A DNA stretch of 64,000 bases, taken from assembly GCF_041248615.1 (NCBI RefSeq), contig NZ_CP158425.1. One strand, written 5' to 3'. The notes beneath the pieces are model-generated. The model worked only from the letters and a program-made list of their open reading frames with translations. It had not been told where the DNA came from and ran no database searches. This DNA is from Escherichia coli. Lineage in GTDB: Bacteria; Pseudomonadota; Gammaproteobacteria; Enterobacterales; Enterobacteriaceae. The position numbers and the translations under genes are program-made. Within the stretch, counting starts at the first letter, position 1; the number at the start of each line of letters is the position of its first letter. This document shows positions 31,085 through 53,963 of this stretch, one piece after another.

Positions 31085-34000
31085 CTACCTTTTATTTTCA
31101 TTAAGCCACTGATCCGCTTTATCGACACGTGACTGGTAAGGCTCATTTGTGTTGCTCAGCTCTGACTTCATGTACTGAATGAATTCATCTGCTTTCTGAG
31201 GCCCAAAGCGTGGGTCATCCGTCAATTGCTGCCGGATAGCCCTTTCAGAGTTCTGCGCTGCATTCGCATAAGTCGAAACGCCGTCGCTGCTAATACTCTG
31301 ATACCGGTCACTTACAGCTGCGACGCCATCAGACATCTGCATGTGATTAAGGACTTTACCCTGGAGAGAATCAGGCATATTTGCAGGGTTAGAGGCATCA
31401 TTTGCTATCGATGTCTGGGTTTGAAGGATGCCCGCTCCCGTAAGCATCTCATTTACCGGTTTCGCCCCAACGCTGGTTAGCGTATCCGAAACAAATTGCT
31501 GGCCCCCGAGTAGCGCACCAGAAATCGCGCCCCGCTCAGTGTTGGCCTCTATCTTTTCCCCAACCAAGCGATCTGTGACGGTCTGAGTGCGGTTACCAAC
31601 GAGACCACCGCCCGACCCACCCTCTCCTAGGTTTGCCCGTACGACTGACTCAAGTGAACCATCAGCTCTGTTATGAGTGTTGAAACTGCTATGGATGCTC
31701 TGAACGTCATTCATACTCCAGTTAACGTTATAGTTACCCAGTTCATTAAGGATCTTCTGGGTATCCGCTTTGAGCTGCTCTCTTTCGGCACCGGTAGCCA
31801 TGGTGCTGGCACCATAGGTAAAGACAGCTTGCTGTGCCAATTCAGCTCGCTTATCGTCCCGGCTTAAGTTCGGGTTGTTGGCAACACGACTAAAGTAGTT
31901 ATCAGTGTTATTAGATAAGCCACGAACTTGACCGCTCTGATACATACTGTTCAAAGCAGTGGCTCGTTGATCCATTCCATCACCAACCACCCGACCTCCG
32001 GTAGCCTTTTCCAGATCGTTAAATGTGCCTTCTGCATTTCTGACATCCTGACCTGAATTGACGACTTTCTCTACACCCTGATTATTCAGTACAGGGCCAT
32101 TCGTTTTGAGAGAATTGAGCACATTCCTTTCTTCATCAGAATAAGTGCGGCCCACGTTGTTGTTATGTATTCCCTGAATATCGCCTTTGCCCGCGTTATC
32201 AAGGTTATACGGAGTAAAGCCAGCTTCACTTTTTCCAGGGACACGCTGAGTCGCGTCCTGAGCGTTGGAGGAAAGACCGAGTTTAGCCTGCGAATCAACA
32301 CTTCCACCCAGTTCCCCTACGCGTGACGCACTCATCACGCCAGACGTATTTACGCTGTCAGGAGTTCTATCCTGTGCCTGAGTGATAGTATTAATTCCTG
32401 ACCCTTCGCCTGAAATTCTGTCGAGCTGATTGGTGATAGGTAGCAGCTGCTGTGCATTACCACCGAAGTCGGAAACCAGACTTTTAAGCAGGCTGGAGGT
32501 TTCACGGAGATCCTGTTTATTACTTTCGGCCGTCTCTCCCCGGGCGGTATCAATCGCAATTTTTTGCTCACTGAAATCTCGTGTTGCAGCCACAAGCGCG
32601 TCAGTACGTTGAAGCTGCGAACCAAGCTGATTACTGGCCTTGAAGGTATCGTTATAGGAGTTAAATTTCTCCATAAACGCATTCTCATCCAGCCCATTCT
32701 TACGAGCAAAATTCCTTACATCATCATCACTGAAGTTTTTGTTGCGAATAGAATCGGAGAACCTGTCCAGGTTAATGCTTTGTTTAGAATCAAGGCTCAT
32801 TCCACTATTGGAGCTGGCGTTAGTCGATACCGATGTAGAAATGTTTTGCGCCATCGTCTGTGTCGCCTGGTTCATTTTCGACGATGCTTCTTTAAACGCA
32901 TTAGTATTGGATATCTGATCGCTGCTTACCTGAGACGCCGCTTTACTGAACTGGTCAGTCAAAGCAGAATCCTGGCTAAGCTGATTCGTGATTGCTTTTG
33001 AAAGGTCATTTGAAAGCGAGTCACTGCCTGTATTGGTCTTAGATGCGCCGCTACTCAATTGCCCTGCTACAGCTGCTTTCAGCCCGGCTCCGTTGCCAGT
33101 TCCAGCACCTCCATTAAGCCCAGCGTTTAGAATAACATTTGAAGCAATGCTGGCCATCTGAGACGCACTCACCCCATGTTTCGTTGCAATACCTTCTGCT
33201 ACAGAGGCACCAATCTTATCCGAGATCTGCTTCATTGTTTGCAGGTTGGTTGAGAACTGCTGGCTCGACTGTCCTGACCTTCCAATTTCACTCATCTGAC
33301 TGTAACCAGCCTGGAATGAATTACTTGCCGCACTCATAACTGATGAGGTTACAGCTGATCCTTGCCCCTGGCTGTTAGCGATACTTGAACCAGCATTCCA
33401 CATTCCAAGACGGAAATTACTTGAATCAACTGCGCCGCCATCGCTGTATCCCTGACCGGTACTGGTCAAGGCGGTTCGTGTCACGTCACCAAATGAAGAT
33501 TTACCGCTGTTAGGGCCATCCCATACTTTGGGCGTTACATGACCAGTATCCACCGGCGCATCGGGGGTCACTCCCTTAACCGCATTCATCATCGGGTGAA
33601 TCGACTGTGTCATCAGGAATAATGTGAGTACCGGAATCAGAGCATAAAGCGCGGAAGCAACAGACAGGTATGAACTGTATGTTTCCGCAAGCCCTGGGAG
33701 CCCCATCCACGTGACGGCATTATTCTGGCTGTTGAGGGTGCTCCAGGTATCCAGATCGGCCGTCGCGACTTTCTTCACATACGCGTTGACCATTACTGCC
33801 GTAAGCGGCCACATATTCACGAAGAGAATAAGTTGCAAATATTTCGCCGCAGCGGCAACACCATTACCACCTAACGCCAGCAGCATAAGCAAAGCAAATG
33901 GAGCAACCATGTAAGCAAACATCTCAAGGAATGCGATTGCTGCTCCAGACAGTTGTAACCACAACTGGCCCTGTGAAGCCATTGTGTTGGTTCGCTTCAG

Positions 34001-35038
34001 AGAAGCCTCAAACAACTGCATATCGGAAGCCAGACCGAGTGGGGTCTTATATTTGCTTGCGCCATTTCTGAGCTCATTCATTATGAACAGGTTCAGGGTG
34101 GCGTCATACGAACCAATAGCCTTACCGTACATACCATTTGCTGACGCCATAACATCAGTAAAACTTGCGCCGGTAGGTGCACCATTTGCTTCGTCTGGAG
34201 TAAGGATGCCGTTTGTCTGTCCTATAAGGGAAATAGTCTGGCGAGCTTCAGCTGTACTGGTAACCTGTTTCACAGTTGACCAGACCTCATCACACGTACC
34301 AGATTTTGAACCGTTAGCGCCAACAATACTGGCAGAGGCATTCTTCAGTGCGCCTTTCATCGCCTGATTAATCCGGTCCATGCTATCTGCCAGATTAGCT
34401 GAGAAAATATCGTTAAAAATAGTTTCTTTACCGGCAATATTTGCGCTTGAGTTTTGGGTAGCCTTCAGGCAGTTGTATGCAAGAGACTGAACGGTAGCAC
34501 ATACGTTCATTGGCCCTAGCCCGCTGGCCGGTTCAGGAAATGCAGAACAGTAGCCCTGGCTATCGCCGCCCCATTGCAAAAACTTCACGAATCGGATCAT
34601 CGGACCGAGGGTGATGTCATCGTCCAGAGTTGTTGCAGACAGGTCCACCGGAGAAAGCGGATCAAACGCAGTTTTATAATCCTTCAGCAAACCCTGGCTT
34701 AAGTTAGTGGTGACGGTGGCCATCGCAGCAATAAAAATTGGAATTCCGTCGACGTTTCTGACCTCTCCCGACTTTACAGATTCAATAGTTACATCCACTC
34801 GAACCATTGCCATCATGAAAAGGATCAACCCCAAAAACCAGGAGAAAAACGGTAATTCATTTTTGGTCGGAGCCTGAAGCCATAGCCACGTTTTATAGAA
34901 TAGGCTCACACCTGCTACAACGGCGGCCGTGGTCAGGAACTCTTTTACACCAGTATATTGAGAAAAGATTAGGGCAATACCGGTAAAAGCCGACCAGACA
35001 AAATCAATATCACCCAGGGTATATATGTTGTAATCCAT
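31085..35038 (-). CDS. traG: F-type conjugative mating-pair stabilisation protein TraG/TrhG (large, N-terminal polytopic membrane domain)
   Basis: 1317 aa; N-terminal multi-TM TraG_N-like region; follows TraH as in F-like/IncHI systems. Confidence 0.85.
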   Translation of the reverse strand: MDYNIYTLGDIDFVWSAFTGIALIFSQYTGVKEFLTTAAVVAGVSLFYKTWLWLQAPTKNELPFFSWFLGLILFMMAMVRVDVTIESVKSGEVRNVDGIPIFIAAMATVTTNLSQGLLKDYKTAFDPLSPVDLSATTLDDDITLGPMIRFVKFLQWGGDSQGYCSAFPEPASGLGPMNVCATVQSLAYNCLKATQNSSANIAGKETIFNDIFSANLADSMDRINQAMKGALKNASASIVGANGSKSGTCDEVWSTVKQVTSTAEARQTISLIGQTNGILTPDEANGAPTGASFTDVMASANGMYGKAIGSYDATLNLFIMNELRNGASKYKTPLGLASDMQLFEASLKRTNTMASQGQLWLQLSGAAIAFLEMFAYMVAPFALLMLLALGGNGVAAAAKYLQLILFVNMWPLTAVMVNAYVKKVATADLDTWSTLNSQNNAVTWMGLPGLAETYSSYLSVASALYALIPVLTLFLMTQSIHPMMNAVKGVTPDAPVDTGHVTPKVWDGPNSGKSSFGDVTRTALTSTGQGYSDGGAVDSSNFRLGMWNAGSSIANSQGQGSAVTSSVMSAASNSFQAGYSQMSEIGRSGQSSQQFSTNLQTMKQISDKIGASVAEGIATKHGVSASQMASIASNVILNAGLNGGAGTGNGAGLKAAVAGQLSSGASKTNTGSDSLSNDLSKAITNQLSQDSALTDQFSKAASQVSSDQISNTNAFKEASSKMNQATQTMAQNISTSVSTNASSNSGMSLDSKQSINLDRFSDSIRNKNFSDDDVRNFARKNGLDENAFMEKFNSYNDTFKASNQLGSQLQRTDALVAATRDFSEQKIAIDTARGETAESNKQDLRETSSLLKSLVSDFGGNAQQLLPITNQLDRISGEGSGINTITQAQDRTPDSVNTSGVMSASRVGELGGSVDSQAKLGLSSNAQDATQRVPGKSEAGFTPYNLDNAGKGDIQGIHNNNVGRTYSDEERNVLNSLKTNGPVLNNQGVEKVVNSGQDVRNAEGTFNDLEKATGGRVVGDGMDQRATALNSMYQSGQVRGLSNNTDNYFSRVANNPNLSRDDKRAELAQQAVFTYGASTMATGAEREQLKADTQKILNELGNYNVNWSMNDVQSIHSSFNTHNRADGSLESVVRANLGEGGSGGGLVGNRTQTVTDRLVGEKIEANTERGAISGALLGGQQFVSDTLTSVGAKPVNEMLTGAGILQTQTSIANDASNPANMPDSLQGKVLNHMQMSDGVAAVSDRYQSISSDGVSTYANAAQNSERAIRQQLTDDPRFGPQKADEFIQYMKSELSNTNEPYQSRVDKADQWLNENKR

Positions 35039-35046
35039 GTCAGACC

Positions 35047-36462
35047 TCAGTTACGTGTGCCACGAATACTTTCAGTGAAAGCCTTCCGTTGCAGGCGACG
35101 GTTATCCCAGGTTGAAATGACGTCCGAGCTGGTACCGACCTGGCTGTGCGATAGCTCATAGGCGGCTTTAACCTGTTTTGAGAGATTGTCTGTTAATCGG
35201 TTGAGATCATCCCTTTTACCCGACAGCGACTCACTCGGTATGCTCATGGTTGAAATTTTGGCCTCAACCTGGCGCAACATGTTGATTACGAGGCTCGTCG
35301 CAGCAATAGTGCTTATGTCCTGAATGTATGCGTACCCTTCCGGTGCTTCGAATGTTTGCAAAGAGTCGATAATGGTCGGGATGCCGATATAGGAGATAAT
35401 GCGTAATTCATCATCTGAAACACGAACGTCGTTGATGATTTTTTTCTGTACGTTTAAAAGAAGATCAGAAATGGTATCCTTCAATCCCTTAAAACCACCG
35501 TCATTAACTTCTGACATGACAAGGCACTGAGCCTTTCGTGGGGATGATGGATCTGGTGCCGGAGAACACTTGAGCATTTTAATTGATCCGCCAGCTGGTG
35601 GCCCCATGATGTAATCCGTGACAGTCATGGTAGACGGGCGGACTTCCATTCCCGCTTTTTCGCCTTTGCTATCCCAGTTGATAATGACAGTACCCACGAG
35701 AGACATAAGTTGTTCTGCCAATTTATAACCGGATAACTCCGTTACCCCTCCGATGTTCATTGTTCCCTTATCAATATCCATGAACGACATATAGAAGAGG
35801 TTACCACTGAATTTTTCAGCGAACTCTTCGGGATCCTTTGCTTTAACCTGAGAAGTGACAGCTTCAGGTGACTTTGTCATCGATGAGCCAAAATCAGGAA
35901 TGAGACCATTAATCGATCCCAGAATTGAGGCTGGTCCAGAGCTAACTGAGTTAGCGAACTGGCTTGGCGTACCCACGTTTTCAGAAAGGAAAGAGTAAGT
36001 TGCATTGCATGAATCTTTCGCAAATTTATTTAGCGCTTGCAGTTTGTTTTGGATGTCATTAATCGTTGCAGCACAGTCAGCACAAATAGCTGAAACAGCA
36101 ACGTTAAAAGCATAGATAGCCGCACCCTGGGCAATACCACGGGCCACCTGCACAAGCTGGTCCCCGTTGATCATGCTGAAGGACCCAAGAAAAACGTCAA
36201 TACCATTACAACCGACAGAAGCTTTTGGAAACGACATGGAAACAAGGTTGGTATTAACGTTTGTTGTTCGGTAAGACATTGACCCGCCAACTATGCCTGT
36301 ACGGGTTGCTGTGGAAAAGGTGGCCGGGCTGGTAGACGTCATCATGCCATTGAAAATGTTACGCATTGCGTTGTCTGCATTTGCAGTCGGGGCTAAAATT
36401 GCAGCACAAACAGAAAGAGACAAAAGTAACTTTTTGAAGTTGAAAACGGCATTACTGCGCAT
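35047..36462 (-). CDS. traH: F-type conjugative pilus assembly protein TraH/TrhH
   Basis: Signal peptide MRSNAVFNFKKLLLSLSVCAAILA; TraH-like sequence; ATG at 36462 has GGAGG upstream. Confidence 0.85.
   Translation of the reverse strand: MRSNAVFNFKKLLLSLSVCAAILAPTANADNAMRNIFNGMMTSTSPATFSTATRTGIVGGSMSYRTTNVNTNLVSMSFPKASVGCNGIDVFLGSFSMINGDQLVQVARGIAQGAAIYAFNVAVSAICADCAATINDIQNKLQALNKFAKDSCNATYSFLSENVGTPSQFANSVSSGPASILGSINGLIPDFGSSMTKSPEAVTSQVKAKDPEEFAEKFSGNLFYMSFMDIDKGTMNIGGVTELSGYKLAEQLMSLVGTVIINWDSKGEKAGMEVRPSTMTVTDYIMGPPAGGSIKMLKCSPAPDPSSPRKAQCLVMSEVNDGGFKGLKDTISDLLLNVQKKIINDVRVSDDELRIISYIGIPTIIDSLQTFEAPEGYAYIQDISTIAATSLVINMLRQVEAKISTMSIPSESLSGKRDDLNRLTDNLSKQVKAAYELSHSQVGTSSDVISTWDNRRLQRKAFTESIRGTRN
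36422..36434. repeat. AAAAGT-N-ACTTTT motif instance (AAAAGTAACTTTT)
   Basis: Perfect; inside the traF/traH overlap (traH signal-peptide codons). Confidence 0.5.
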
Positions 36463-37498
36463 AAGTGCCTCCAAAACTGCCGCCAGCATTGAGATAATTG
36501 ACCGGATCGGCCGTAGGCATGTCATAGCCTTCGAGTTTTTGGTCCATTATTTTTTGAAGTAAGAATGGGTCTGATTCCATTTCGGATTTATTAACGGTAA
36601 TAACGCCATCATCACCGATGGTATATTGCCTTTTAATATCTAGAGTTGACTGAAACGAAGCGTCATCGATCAGATTCATGCCCTTCGCGGCAAGTATAAT
36701 AGTGTTCTTTAATTCATCAGCGGAGATCATGCCTTCACTAATGCGCTGAGCTGATGTCCCATCCTTTGAAACCAGGAAAATTGTAGGTACCTCTCGAATT
36801 TTAAATTGATCAATAATTTGTGCATTGGGGATGTTAAAATCCTGAAAAAGGCCATTATGCAATGGCCTTCCATCCATACTGATTGGAAGAATATCTACCG
36901 AATAATAGTTCTGCATAAATTGAAGTATTTGGCTCTCTTCGTGGCAAAACTGGCAAGTACTCTGGAAAAAGAAAAATAAACCTGACTTAGTAAAGATATC
37001 TTTCATTACCGTTTGCTGATTTTTTTCAACAACAGTGCGGTGAGCATCCAGTGCCACCTTTTCCACTGGTTGCCTGCGTTTTTCAGACATCATCGGGTTT
37101 TTAAGAAAATAATCTTTTGATTTGTCAGAAAAACGCGTACTGATATCCAGCATTAACCTTTGCGCCGTGTAATAACGTGATAGATTTTCTGCGGTAGGGT
37201 TATCCATTGCCTGCGTTAACAGTCGAGGCATATTCTCTTTTAGCCATTTTGAATTTAAATCTACCTTTTCCTCTTTTGAAGGCGAGCTAGCAGCACCGGT
37301 TGGTGGCAAAACCTTTTCTTCTTCAGCTTCGCTTTTTTTAGCAGGATCGTCATACCAGAAGAAACCCTTCTTATAAGCCTGGCCTGATACAAAGGGCGTA
37401 TCTTTTATTAGGGGTTGCTCAGGGCTGGCGTGGGCACCAGTAATTACCAAAGACATAAGCAAAACCATCTTTGAAGGCGCTAATGCAATACGAGTCAT
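36452..37498 (-). CDS. traF: F-type TraF/TrbB-like thioredoxin-fold pilus assembly protein (CxxC)
   Basis: 348 aa with CQFC motif in a thioredoxin-like C-terminal domain; AAGGAG upstream of the ATG. Confidence 0.8.
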   Translation of the reverse strand: MTRIALAPSKMVLLMSLVITGAHASPEQPLIKDTPFVSGQAYKKGFFWYDDPAKKSEAEEEKVLPPTGAASSPSKEEKVDLNSKWLKENMPRLLTQAMDNPTAENLSRYYTAQRLMLDISTRFSDKSKDYFLKNPMMSEKRRQPVEKVALDAHRTVVEKNQQTVMKDIFTKSGLFFFFQSTCQFCHEESQILQFMQNYYSVDILPISMDGRPLHNGLFQDFNIPNAQIIDQFKIREVPTIFLVSKDGTSAQRISEGMISADELKNTIILAAKGMNLIDDASFQSTLDIKRQYTIGDDGVITVNKSEMESDPFLLQKIMDQKLEGYDMPTADPVNYLNAGGSFGGTYAQ

Positions 37499-38091
37499 AG
37501 ACCGTTCTCCTTTTCTGATGCGGTTATGATGGCATACAAAAAAAAGGTTAGAGCTCGTATAGCATGGTCGTTTTTATGTTGAAAAGGACGGAAAAGGAGT
37601 GCTGACTAAGAAGATAGTCTCGGTGATGGAAAGATCATCCATCTTGCACATTGTGAAAAATCCGGTGTAACAAAAACATGGTTTTATCGAATATCTAAAA
37701 GCAAATATTGCTTTGAAAACAGGTGTATTAAGAGCTGAAAAAAATCATCACCAGTAACGCTGTTTCTATATTTCAAAGAAGGAATAGCTAAGGATCAAAG
37801 AAGCGAACTTAGGCAAGAATATAAAATATATTAATTGAAAGCGATTAAGAAGTCGTCATGCATAGAAGGTTTTAGAGAACCTAAGTAGTTTTACGTTTTC
37901 AACAGAAAAAAAGGTGAACATTTTTTGGAACGAAGAAAGACTGTATAAAGAAAAATCAAATTATATCTTTACTTGTCAAGAGTTAATATTTAAGTTGTAA
38001 CTAATATTTGATTGTAAAGCAAACAACAGAATTTGACTTAAGTCAATATTTAGATTCAGACAAGGCAAGTTTCGCGATATCTTTTTTAAAT

Positions 38092-38604
38092 TTAATCTAA
38101 TTCTTCTTGAGAATACCTCTCTATGGCTGAAGCAGTTGAAGATAATCTGCAACGTGGACAATAAGCATCATTTGTCACTGGCACAATGTATGGGCGTTTA
38201 CATTTTTCGCAGGCACCTAGTTCTTCAATTTCTTTCATAGAAGTAAGGATTTCTATTATTTTATTAACTTCCGGTGCGCATACAAAGTATCCCAGATTAT
38301 GAAGGACACTCATTATTCGGTTGAAGTCAATTTGCCGAAAACTCGCTTCCGGATTTATTGGATCAAAACCAAAATAGTTAACTGCGACATCAATAACAGC
38401 AGAAAAAGCTCGGCGGTTATCTGTGCGTTTGCTCCAGCCCCGGATACCTTTTTTGAGTTTTGTTTTTGCACCAGGCTCAAAATCGATATTTTCAGCAACA
38501 TGATTACCGTACAAAATTCGTATTGTATTTTTATTTGCCCCAAGCGACATAGTCCTTGCTGCTCGCAATAGAGCATTAGCTTTTGTTTGATCGACCTTTG
38601 CCAT
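38092..38604 (-). CDS. hypothetical protein with C-terminal zinc ribbon (possible transfer regulator)
   Basis: 170 aa; CEKC...CPRC motif; position equals trhR/trhY-like genes next to oriT in IncHI Tra1 (assignment not verified). Confidence 0.5.
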   Translation of the reverse strand: MAKVDQTKANALLRAARTMSLGANKNTIRILYGNHVAENIDFEPGAKTKLKKGIRGWSKRTDNRRAFSAVIDVAVNYFGFDPINPEASFRQIDFNRIMSVLHNLGYFVCAPEVNKIIEILTSMKEIEELGACEKCKRPYIVPVTNDAYCPRCRLSSTASAIERYSQEELD

Positions 38605-38605
38605 A

Positions 38606-39406
38606 TTAATAATCCTTTAACATAACTTTATTTGTTAAAGTGTTGAACACATCCTGACGGTGACTGGTGAACATAGTGTCATAACGTAATAGTTCCATCA
38701 AATCATCACTAACTTTTCCTAACCGGATGTCAGCAGACAATTCATAAGCCCAGGCAAAAACTTTCGTTTTAAGTGAAACACTCTCTTCAATATGCCCTTG
38801 TGAGAAAGCAATTGTACGTGGGAAAAGAACGACATCGTTAATTGTTTTTAACGATGAATAACCAATGTCTTTAATAGCATCAGCTGTAGTTGGTTTTAAA
38901 CCAAAGAAAACACTTACAAACTCTGGTGCGAGCATTGAGATAAAGAACACCTGCATAAAGTAGTCATTCTGTATATCAACACATTTAGAACGCAACTCAT
39001 GAATCTTCTTGGGATTATAGATATCCACTGTACCATTCAGAAAAGTCACTTTTTCACCGGCATCGTAAATACCATAGTCAATATCATTTGTATCATATTC
39101 ACGAATTACATTGGAATCACCGTCCAAGACCGCAGAAAAAAACCTCTCCCATGTAATTTCCTTTCCGAGTGTACGCGGAACCAAAAAACTACCTGGACGT
39201 GTTTCCACTTCAAAAGCTAAATCAGCGGCTGTACTAAATCCTTTCCCAAATAGGCGACGCTGGAGAAGAGGAGTCCCAGTTTGATATGCAGAAGATCCAT
39301 GCACAGGCAATAACATTAAAAATGCACGGTAACTACGAATAAGCGAAATCTCAGTGCGGAAAAGTTTACCGAGTAAGCTACGAGTTAAATTATCAGATTC
39401 TGACAT
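38606..39406 (-). CDS. hypothetical protein (266 aa)
   Basis: ORF separated by 1 nt from the following gene; no motif recognised. Confidence 0.5.
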   Translation of the reverse strand: MSESDNLTRSLLGKLFRTEISLIRSYRAFLMLLPVHGSSAYQTGTPLLQRRLFGKGFSTAADLAFEVETRPGSFLVPRTLGKEITWERFFSAVLDGDSNVIREYDTNDIDYGIYDAGEKVTFLNGTVDIYNPKKIHELRSKCVDIQNDYFMQVFFISMLAPEFVSVFFGLKPTTADAIKDIGYSSLKTINDVVLFPRTIAFSQGHIEESVSLKTKVFAWAYELSADIRLGKVSDDLMELLRYDTMFTSHRQDVFNTLTNKVMLKDY

Positions 39407-39494: not shown

Positions 39495-39733
39495 AGTATT
39501 TTCTTAAGGCTTGAATAAGCCTTAAATCTATCCCTTCAACCACACCGCTTACTTGTAACACTTTTTAACCAAACTGACCAGAATTTTATCAAAATTTCTT
39601 CGCATGCTAACGAAATGTGAAGCGATTAAAAAAAAACCTAAATCCAGCCCCTCCCAACGTTGGATTAGAATAACGACGTCTTTCACTGACCGTCATAAAC
39701 TGACATTTTTACTTTTCATCAACCTCATGCTTA

Positions 39734-39898
39734 CATAGGATCACTAAACAAAGAAAAGTGACCCTATGAATGCCTCACATAGGGTCACTTATGTTTGAAA
39801 AGTGACCCTATGTAATGTCGTCATAGGGTCACTTTTTATAAAAGTGTCACTATGGACAAAGTTCCATAGGGTCATTTTTTTTGGAAAAGTGGCACTAG
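39734..39898. repeat. array of about 43-bp-periodic imperfect palindromes (AAAAGTGACCCTATG-N9-CATAGGGTCACTTTT); candidate oriT/operator region
   Basis: Three full palindromes at 39754-39790, 39797-39837, 39841-39880 plus half-sites at 39734-39745 and 39883-39898, in the 760-bp divergent intergenic region before the relaxase operon. Confidence 0.5.
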
Positions 39899-39966
39899 AT
39901 ATATGTATAACTTTAATAGAGCAATGCACATTATCAAAAGCAATAATCCACAATGGTCATTCCCTC

Positions 39967-52921: not shown

Positions 52922-53464
52922 CTAACTGGCGAGCCTGCGAAAGTCAGACTCGTTGTTATAAAGCGGCATATCGTAAGCGGTGTCTGAAATGAACATGCGG
53001 ATCTGCTCAAGCGTCATGCCACAATGAAAACGGTTTACGCTCACATTGGCCCGGGGGAAGTCAGCACAAAACGCATTCAAAACATTTTCATGGACAATGC
53101 CAATGTTGATCAACGCAGCTGGCCCGTTGTCACGGAAGGATACGACACGGAATCCCCCATACCAGCCTGAATGGGAGAAAAATGAAAATGCGCCGGATGC
53201 CAGACCATTAGACAGGTCATAGCGCAATTTCCCGCACAGAGACTGGCTGTCTTTGCTGTACACGCGATTAATGAAAATACCGGGACCAACTTCTACCGGC
53301 TGCTTGTTGCTTGCTAAACACGGAAAGCCCACCAGCGAAACCTCCCTTTCTCCTGACCAGTTTACCTGATACCCGGCAGTGAGAAAGTCCGTCAGTTCTA
53401 CGCCAGAAAGAGCATTAATGGCCGCGATATCGGTAGTCAAAATATTTACGTTTTTCATATTCAT
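52922..53464 (-). CDS. hypothetical protein (180 aa)
   Basis: ORF only. Confidence 0.4.
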   Translation of the reverse strand: MNMKNVNILTTDIAAINALSGVELTDFLTAGYQVNWSGEREVSLVGFPCLASNKQPVEVGPGIFINRVYSKDSQSLCGKLRYDLSNGLASGAFSFFSHSGWYGGFRVVSFRDNGPAALINIGIVHENVLNAFCADFPRANVSVNRFHCGMTLEQIRMFISDTAYDMPLYNNESDFRRLAS

Positions 53465-53525
53465 CTCATCTTTATTCTAAAGTGCGTTTTTTGTCTATCA
53501 GCCCGAGGATTGAAAATTTGAATAT

Positions 53526-53963
53526 TTAATGTGACAGATAAATACCTGTCACTTTTTCAAAAACAGCCTGTAATTGAATATCGAGAGAGTTCATTTTAAA
53601 ATCCACCAGCTCACCTTTATTATCGCAAACCAAATAAAAATAGGAGTCAAATGCGTCTGTATCTTCATCTTTAAAAATACGGAAGGAATTAATTTTATCA
53701 TGCCCTTCAAATTCGGCATGAATACCATAGCGAACCGAGCCGTCATCGAACTGAACAACCCGTCGTACAGAATTAATCCGGACGTACTGTTTTAAGGCCC
53801 TCGCGAAATCGGCATTTAACGCCAACGCTCGTAAGATTGAATCAGCGGTTTCATTCTGCTTTTTACGATCGTATTCAAATATCCCACAGCCGGTGTTACG
53901 AAAGACCGGCTGAAGAGCATTAACCAGGTTGAAGGAATCCACGTTTCTGTCGTTTCTGTACAT
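53526..53963 (-). CDS. hypothetical protein (145 aa)
   Basis: ORF only. Confidence 0.4.
   Translation of the reverse strand: MYRNDRNVDSFNLVNALQPVFRNTGCGIFEYDRKKQNETADSILRALALNADFARALKQYVRINSVRRVVQFDDGSVRYGIHAEFEGHDKINSFRIFKDEDTDAFDSYFYLVCDNKGELVDFKMNSLDIQLQAVFEKVTGIYLSH

Follow-up and report, generated by a model that had tools for sequence, protein, structure and literature searches.

The trhY-trhF gap of an IncHI2 plasmid: a probable activator-dependent promoter module beside trhF and an AT-rich spacer free of sequence constraint

The intergenic region between trhY and trhF in the 64,000-nucleotide stretch of DNA that we analyzed (the window) is a regulatory region of an ordinary, known type. 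Judged by its neighbors and by alignment, it is the IncHI2 counterpart of the F-operon promoter region of the IncHI1 plasmid R27, a positional orthologue whose core is also an orthologue in sequence; the correspondence is drawn because the same gene order is found on the minus strand. We consider it probable that the gap is built from a conserved, activator-dependent promoter module beside trhF and about 500 bp of AT-rich spacer that is unconstrained in sequence.

The window is from an IncHI2 resistance plasmid and holds a Tra1 region of the IncHI type. A 1-kb stretch around the gap matched 961 plasmids at ≥95% identity, all of them predicted to be conjugative, and the plasmid matches that were inspected (for example, pSTM6-275) were typed as IncHI2A, MOBH, and MPF_F. 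Read along the minus strand, the gene order is trhR, trhY, the gap, trhF, trhH, and trhG, with the following features.

31085-35038, minus strand: trhG, F operon (trhH and trhG together occupy 31085-36462)
35047-36462, minus strand: trhH, F operon, downstream of trhF
36452-37498, minus strand: trhF, first gene of the F operon, encoding a TraF-like thioredoxin-fold pilus-assembly protein (Pfam TraF, E = 2.6e-51; TIGR02740, E = 2.5e-98)
37499-38091, minus strand: trhY-trhF intergenic region, 593 bp, 32% GC, regulatory region of the F operon
38092-38604, minus strand: trhY, R operon, activator pair, 85% identity to R27 TrhY
38606-39406, minus strand: trhR, R operon, activator pair, annotated as trhR in relatives, 77% identity to R27 TrhR

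TrhF is 84% identical to the R27 protein. On the plus strand, past a 704-bp oriT-type gap, lie mobI/traH and then a MobH relaxase gene. Within that second gap, which separates trhR from mobI, positions 39730-39900 contain nested inverted repeats (AAAAGTGACCCTATG / CATAGGGTCACTTTT) in three units at intervals of 43 to 44 bp, one pair being complementary at 15 of 15 positions; these are probably binding sites for the relaxosome or accessory proteins.

What is known of the regulation of this locus comes from R27, whose Tra1 region holds the R, F, and H operons and in which TrhR/TrhY activate the F promoter while HtdA counteracts this activation (PMC7366339). The array signal for R27 trhF was 129 at 25°C and 20 at 37°C, a 6.5-fold difference, and reached 3523 in an htdA mutant at 25°C, a 27-fold increase, while that for trhY was 397 at 25°C and 200 at 37°C (PMC7366339). 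H-NS silences the R27 trhR promoter at 37°C, and overexpression of TrhR/TrhY induces an R27 F-promoter-lacZ fusion at both 25 and 37°C (PMC7366339). At the level of the whole process, H-NS and Hha are reported to repress R27 conjugation at 37°C (PMC7366339, PMC2686267), and the regulatory circuit is highly conserved among IncHI plasmids (PMC7366339). These regulatory data all concern IncHI1, and we found no regulatory experiment on the IncHI2 region in the literature searched.

The two F regions are alike in lying between trhY and trhF on the same strand, in being AT-rich, in their length (611 bp in R27 and 593 bp here), in their orthologous neighbors, and in a module of ~70 to 120 bp beside trhF that is common to both. 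They differ in that approximately 80% of the gap (~470 bp) has no detectable similarity to R27, which also lacks the AATATTT copies, the palindrome, the distal TATAAT, and the fold sequestering the Shine-Dalgarno sequence that are described below for IncHI2.

The gap without an open reading frame (ORF) spans exactly 37499-38091, between the minus-strand ORFs 36452-37498 and 38092-38604, and the AT-rich, non-coding stretch of ~590 bp that a preliminary description of this DNA had placed upstream of a traF-traH-traG operon is thereby borne out. Its GC content is 0.32 against 0.479 for the window, just 0.4% of 593-bp windows being equally AT-rich, and falls along the gap from 41% beside trhF to 24% beside trhY. 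The density of TpA steps is 0.083 to 0.106, with the higher value in the distal AT-rich end, compared to 0.051 in the window. The gap is the most AT-rich stretch of the window, and just one other place in it reaches ≥68% AT over 300 bp. That place, 53413-53738, spans the junction of the minus-strand ORFs 52922-53464 and 53526-53963 and has three AATATTT matches of its own. The plus strand of the gap is purine-rich, the sense-strand C/G ratio being 1.5. We rejected this bias as a Rho-utilization-like signal, as the ratio is 1.5 in IncHI2 and R27 and the C excess is weak or absent elsewhere (1.0 to 1.3).

We also asked what else the gap might encode. The preliminary description had suggested a small RNA, and the length of the gap amid a tightly packed operon region, its purine-rich plus strand, and several ORFs of 20 to 30 codons could be read as signs of a small regulatory RNA or a small protein. 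We regard this as very unlikely. An Rfam search of the gap returned nothing below E = 1 (the best hit, at E = 1.2, was a eukaryotic snoRNA model), a scan of both strands for intrinsic terminators found none, including after trhY, and a scan of both strands for consensus sigma-70 promoters found 0 where 3.0 were expected. The RNA fold z-scores over the repeat region, at -0.7 and +0.5, are unremarkable, the sequence is not conserved outside IncHI2, and its divergence inside IncHI2 is elevated. The small ORFs are short and mostly have non-ATG starts, and no ORF of ≥30 codons lies wholly within the gap except a single TTG ORF of 30 codons. In IncHI3/HI5-type Klebsiella plasmids, an extra 180-amino-acid gene lies between the trhY-like gene and traF (L003, 4051-4593; L009, 3536-4078); it has no Pfam match, and a counterpart was not detected in IncHI1 or IncHI2. 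The gap as a decayed remnant of that gene was rejected, the best tblastn match having an E value of 0.5. In R27 (L004, 3987-3999), we observed a weak terminator-like hairpin, GCCCTTTCAGGGT followed by CTTTCT, with a stem of 5 bp including 3 GC pairs, ~110 bp before the trhF ATG and directly preceding the conserved promoter module; no equivalent of it passed the scan in the IncHI2 gap.

When the gap was compared by BLAST with the gaps of relatives, alignments were obtained at gap positions 498 to 591 only, and the aligned segments cover the last 45 to 95 bp. This divides the gap into two parts, the first of which contains several elements.

37506-37594, minus strand: promoter-proximal module, alignable with other lineages, unlike the rest of the gap
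37507-37512, minus strand: Shine-Dalgarno sequence AAGGAG, 8 nt before the trhF ATG (37498-37496)
37519 (±2 nt), minus strand: predicted transcription start, the 7th nucleotide after the -10 hexamer, giving a 5' untranslated region of ~21 nt
37526-37534, minus strand: predicted extended -10 element TGcCATCAT (TG at 37534-37533, hexamer at 37531-37526)
37538-37545, minus strand: T8 tract, directly upstream of the extended -10 element, with at least T5 in all lineages
37551-37557, minus strand: CGAGCTC, at the -35 position and unlike TTGACA
37566-37576, minus strand: conserved box (A/G)AAA(A/T)C(G/T)ACC, a candidate activator-contact region
37595-38091, no strand assigned: fast-evolving AT-rich spacer, not alignable outside IncHI2

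The predicted -10 element stops 27 nt short of the trhF start codon, and its TG and its A2, T3, A5, and T6 positions do not vary among 9 lineages. In a Photorhabdus plasmid the hexamer reads CATAAT, a change toward the consensus, and in IncHI3/HI5 it reads GATGAT. The Shine-Dalgarno sequence is GAGGAG or AAGGAG across lineages and GAGGGG in IncHI3/HI5. The pattern invariant in the nine lineages is T5-n-T-n-TG-nn-AT-n-ATA followed by (A/G)AGG(A/G)G and ATG. The CGAGCTC sequence is kept in IncHI2, Photorhabdus, and R27, is CGAACTC in pTB222 and pCAV1374, and is not conserved in L015, L018, and IncHI3/HI5. At the 17-bp position for a -35 element, the sequence reads GCTCTA, leaving no usable -35.

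From this arrangement we infer that the conserved module is an extended -10 promoter that relies on an activator and starts transcription near 37519. The lack of a consensus sigma-70 promoter in the gap, where a position weight matrix scan found none either, fits such a promoter. Because its architecture is weak, the promoter would need help, which, by homology with R27, would come from the TrhR/TrhY pair encoded next door, with HtdA opposing. The conserved block could instead be a binding site for an activator or a repressor rather than the -10 element for RNA polymerase. A sigma-28-type promoter was rejected, as the conserved block, judged by eye, has no CGA core. We found neither TTTTTTnTATGnnATnATA nor AAAWCKACC upstream of the R27 AC, AN, Z, H, R, and trhI units, and in the window these sequences are not above chance. 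The other R27 promoters that depend on TrhR/TrhY lack the conserved block, so an activator box common to them all cannot be derived.

Among the closest parallels to this arrangement are the AcaCD-dependent traF promoter of IncC plasmids and the SetCD-dependent traF promoter of the SXT/R391 elements, which belong to related MOBH/MPF-F systems with the same traF-traH-traG operon and stay silent unless a plasmid-encoded activator made of two proteins is present (PMC4207636, PMC4542580). The best structural match of a TrhY model was FlhC, the fold of AcaC and SetC. For TrhR (266 amino acids), we found no family match, and fold comparison of its model (pLDDT, 59.6) was uninformative, FlhD not being among the matches. 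TrhR/TrhY differ from these activators in having no sequence-level similarity to FlhDC, AcaCD, or SetCD, and the IncHI system differs from IncC and SXT in having no recognizable activator box and in adding control by HtdA and temperature.

A start site farther upstream was also considered. The best distal promoter-like site in a position weight matrix (PWM) scan lies in the spacer and is specific to IncHI2:

37960-37986, minus strand: TTAACT-15 nt-TATAAT

This site could be the main or a second F promoter, with a leader of ~440 nt whose folding controls trhF translation, possibly with temperature. The site has the top PWM score in the gap and a perfect TATAAT, and the proximal 171 nt of the IncHI2 gap RNA fold strongly (z = -3.7; z = -2.1 for the whole 612 nt), pairing the U8 tract and upstream sequence with the Shine-Dalgarno AAGGAG and the first trhF codons and sequestering the trhF start. 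This fold would matter only if transcripts start farther upstream than the predicted start at 37519. The 15-nt spacer is not of optimal length, and the consensus scan does not pass the site; a perfect TTGACA occurs at 37979-37974, just 8 nt from the TATAAT. Both the site and the anti-Shine-Dalgarno pairing are confined to IncHI2, and the corresponding R27 sequence has a z-score of -1.25 without the pairing; covariation of the -60 region with the trhF start was rejected, as the IncHI2 pairing is lost in R27 and other lineages. In addition, natural IS1 and ISKpn26 insertions lie between the site and trhF, and the sequence between them evolves 3 to 5 times faster than the flanking genes. We therefore consider a distal promoter with a regulatory leader quite improbable and retain the module beside trhF as the likely promoter.

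The layout of trhY, a gene-free stretch of 591 to 746 bp, and trhF is found in R27, pCAV1374, pLEC, and two metagenome lineages, with gap lengths of 611 bp in R27, 615 bp in pKPC_CAV1374 and pLEC, and 723 and 746 bp in two lineages from public assemblies. IncHI3/HI5 plasmids, past their extra gene, have 365 to 372 bp before traF, and the Photorhabdus plasmid has a gap of 2,173 bp including an insertion sequence (L014, 3514-5686). Between two IncHI2 sublineages, there are 13 differences in the gap (2.2%, compared to 0.4 to 0.8% in the flanking genes), all of them in 37650-37985, one of which destroys the first AATATTT copy. There are no substitutions between the sublineages in 37499-37649, and 37986-38091 is also invariant.

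Insertion sequences were also seen in the gap. An IS1 lies at 37971-37980 in pCFSAN086836 (L012), an ISKpn26 lies at 37788-37794 in p4281_EMB (L013), and the element in the Photorhabdus plasmid gap carries a 446-amino-acid transposase-like ORF and represents a third independent insertion. The trhF-proximal module is intact in all three, and at least 290 bp upstream of trhF are kept in the plasmids with IS1 and ISKpn26.

We next consider the repeats at the distal end, which the preliminary description had given as three spaced copies of a 10-mer, (A/C)TAATATTT(A/G).

37985-37991, plus strand: AATATTT copy 1, GATATTT in the second IncHI2 sublineage (~450 plasmids)
38003-38009, plus strand: AATATTT copy 2, the sole exact match to the 10-mer
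38033-38046, no strand assigned: perfect 14-bp palindrome TTGACTTAAGTCAA, overlapping copy 3, of a length reached in 6.7% of shuffles
38045-38051, plus strand: AATATTT copy 3

The three AATATTT cores are present, although the full 10-mer fits one copy only: copy 2 (CTAATATTTG) matches it exactly, copy 1 (TTAATATTTA) has 1 mismatch, and copy 3 (TCAATATTTA) has 2, so that the sequence common to all three is the 7-bp core. The copies lie 41 to 107 bp past the trhY stop and 487 to 553 bp before the trhF ATG, and a fourth AATATTT occurs in the gap on the minus strand, at 37709. Across the window, the 10-mer consensus has 16 matches against 16.7 expected, that is, no enrichment. In a shuffle test that allows for the local AT-richness and for free choice of the word, 5.4% of dinucleotide shuffles of the gap, and 3.9% of those of 37801-38091, contained some 7-mer in three copies within 70 bp, while AATATTT itself reached three copies in 0 of 2,000 shuffles. 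The cluster is real but marginal, barely above chance. Among the lineages compared, the copies are missing in every one other than IncHI2. The palindrome is not significant, because an equal length arises in 6.7% of shuffles, and for this reason we rejected it as an operator. The AATATTT copies are probably a by-product of the extreme AT-richness of the distal end rather than specific sites, and a functional role for them is improbable.

The same end of the gap bears on whether the region could sense temperature directly. The distal AT-rich end, AATATTT copies included, might be a specific nucleation site for H-NS (or for Hha/H-NS or a plasmid Sfh-type protein), from which a filament silences the F promoter at 37°C. 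Compatible with this are the GC content of 0.24 in 37951-38091, where the TpA density of 0.106 is twice the window average, the failure of AATATTT to reach three copies in any shuffle, the lack of change in 37986-38091 between the IncHI2 sublineages, and the repression of R27 conjugation by H-NS/Hha at 37°C (PMC7366339, PMC2686267). The gap also has five loose matches to the H-NS motif tCGWTWAATT, each with 2 mismatches, or 8.4 per kb compared to 3.1 per kb, an enrichment of 2.7-fold that is as predicted from AT content; at ≤1 mismatch, the gap has no match, whereas there are 24 elsewhere in the window. Nor did we find support for the curvature that had been assumed for the region: in an AA/TT periodicity test, which is the one measure of curvature we used in place of a full curvature model, the power at 10 to 11 bp was 0.38 against a shuffle mean of 0.49, with 63% of shuffles scoring as high, and the A-tracts are not phased. 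The repeats are missing in other lineages, copy 1 is mutated in ~450 IncHI2 plasmids, and in one natural plasmid an IS1 stands between the repeats and trhF. Finally, silencing at the R27 F promoter is not dominant, because overexpressed TrhR/TrhY activates it at 37°C. On balance, we think it unlikely that the gap is a direct thermosensor of this kind.

Binding of H-NS to the gap as such is plausible from composition alone (68% AT, TpA-rich). The gap resembles H-NS-silenced regions such as the R27 trhR promoter in its local AT-richness, its many TpA steps, and its location in horizontally transferred DNA, and differs from them in having no close high-affinity motif and no phased A-tracts, so that it fits the description of an H-NS-silenced curved promoter in composition only. 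As for the thermoregulated promoter that the preliminary description had placed in the gap, homology to R27 upholds its presence there, but the promoter-like module adjoins trhF and not the repeats. In R27, temperature control is reported to act chiefly upstream of the F promoter, through the silencing of trhR (PMC7366339). The F region need not itself be a thermosensor, because TrhR/TrhY overexpression switches the F promoter on at 37°C; the proposed promoter may respond to temperature mostly through the amount of TrhR/TrhY that is made, trhR being shut off by H-NS at 37°C.

What the spacer does, if anything, can be approached from the same comparisons. The gap beyond the core promoter might be functionless, that is, neutral, decaying DNA that serves as a landing pad for insertion sequences and owes its AT-richness to mutation bias. 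The sequence cannot be aligned between lineages and diverges 3 to 5 times faster than its neighbors, the three insertions are independent, and the repeat cluster and palindrome are within chance, all as this would predict. Against it, a long untranslated stretch is found here in every lineage examined (365 to 746 bp without an insertion sequence and 2,173 bp with one, in Photorhabdus), while the neighboring genes abut or overlap. Moreover, some insulation is necessary for the reported regulation, because an operon encoding the activators lies directly upstream on the same strand. These points leave a functionless gap possible but doubtful.

In the arrangement we favor, with the promoter module beside trhF, the ~500-bp spacer is probably passive, a stretch in which R-operon transcripts die out and which H-NS can coat. 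The R27 arrays at 37°C, with a signal of 200 for trhY and 20 for trhF, suggest that R-operon transcripts may stop short of trhF, although the probes behind this ~10-fold difference are not the same. More tentatively, the spacer may be kept for its physical properties and not its sequence, loading H-NS and/or Rho and insulating the F operon from trhR-trhY read-through. We infer this insulation from composition and from R27 microarray signals, the latter obtained with differing probes and on another plasmid.

If the spacer does insulate the F operon, then without it transcription of trhRY would switch on pilus assembly, bypassing the checkpoints set by HtdA and temperature, and silencing or termination in IncHI2 would start at the AATATTT- and TpA-rich end near the trhY stop. 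For work on IncHI2, results obtained with R27 would be transferable for the core only, and the location of the putative promoter and of the constrained part of the gap points to which ~100 bp to use in reporters and mutagenesis. IncHI2 plasmids, whose transfer is most efficient at environmental temperatures, are important vehicles of multidrug and colistin resistance.
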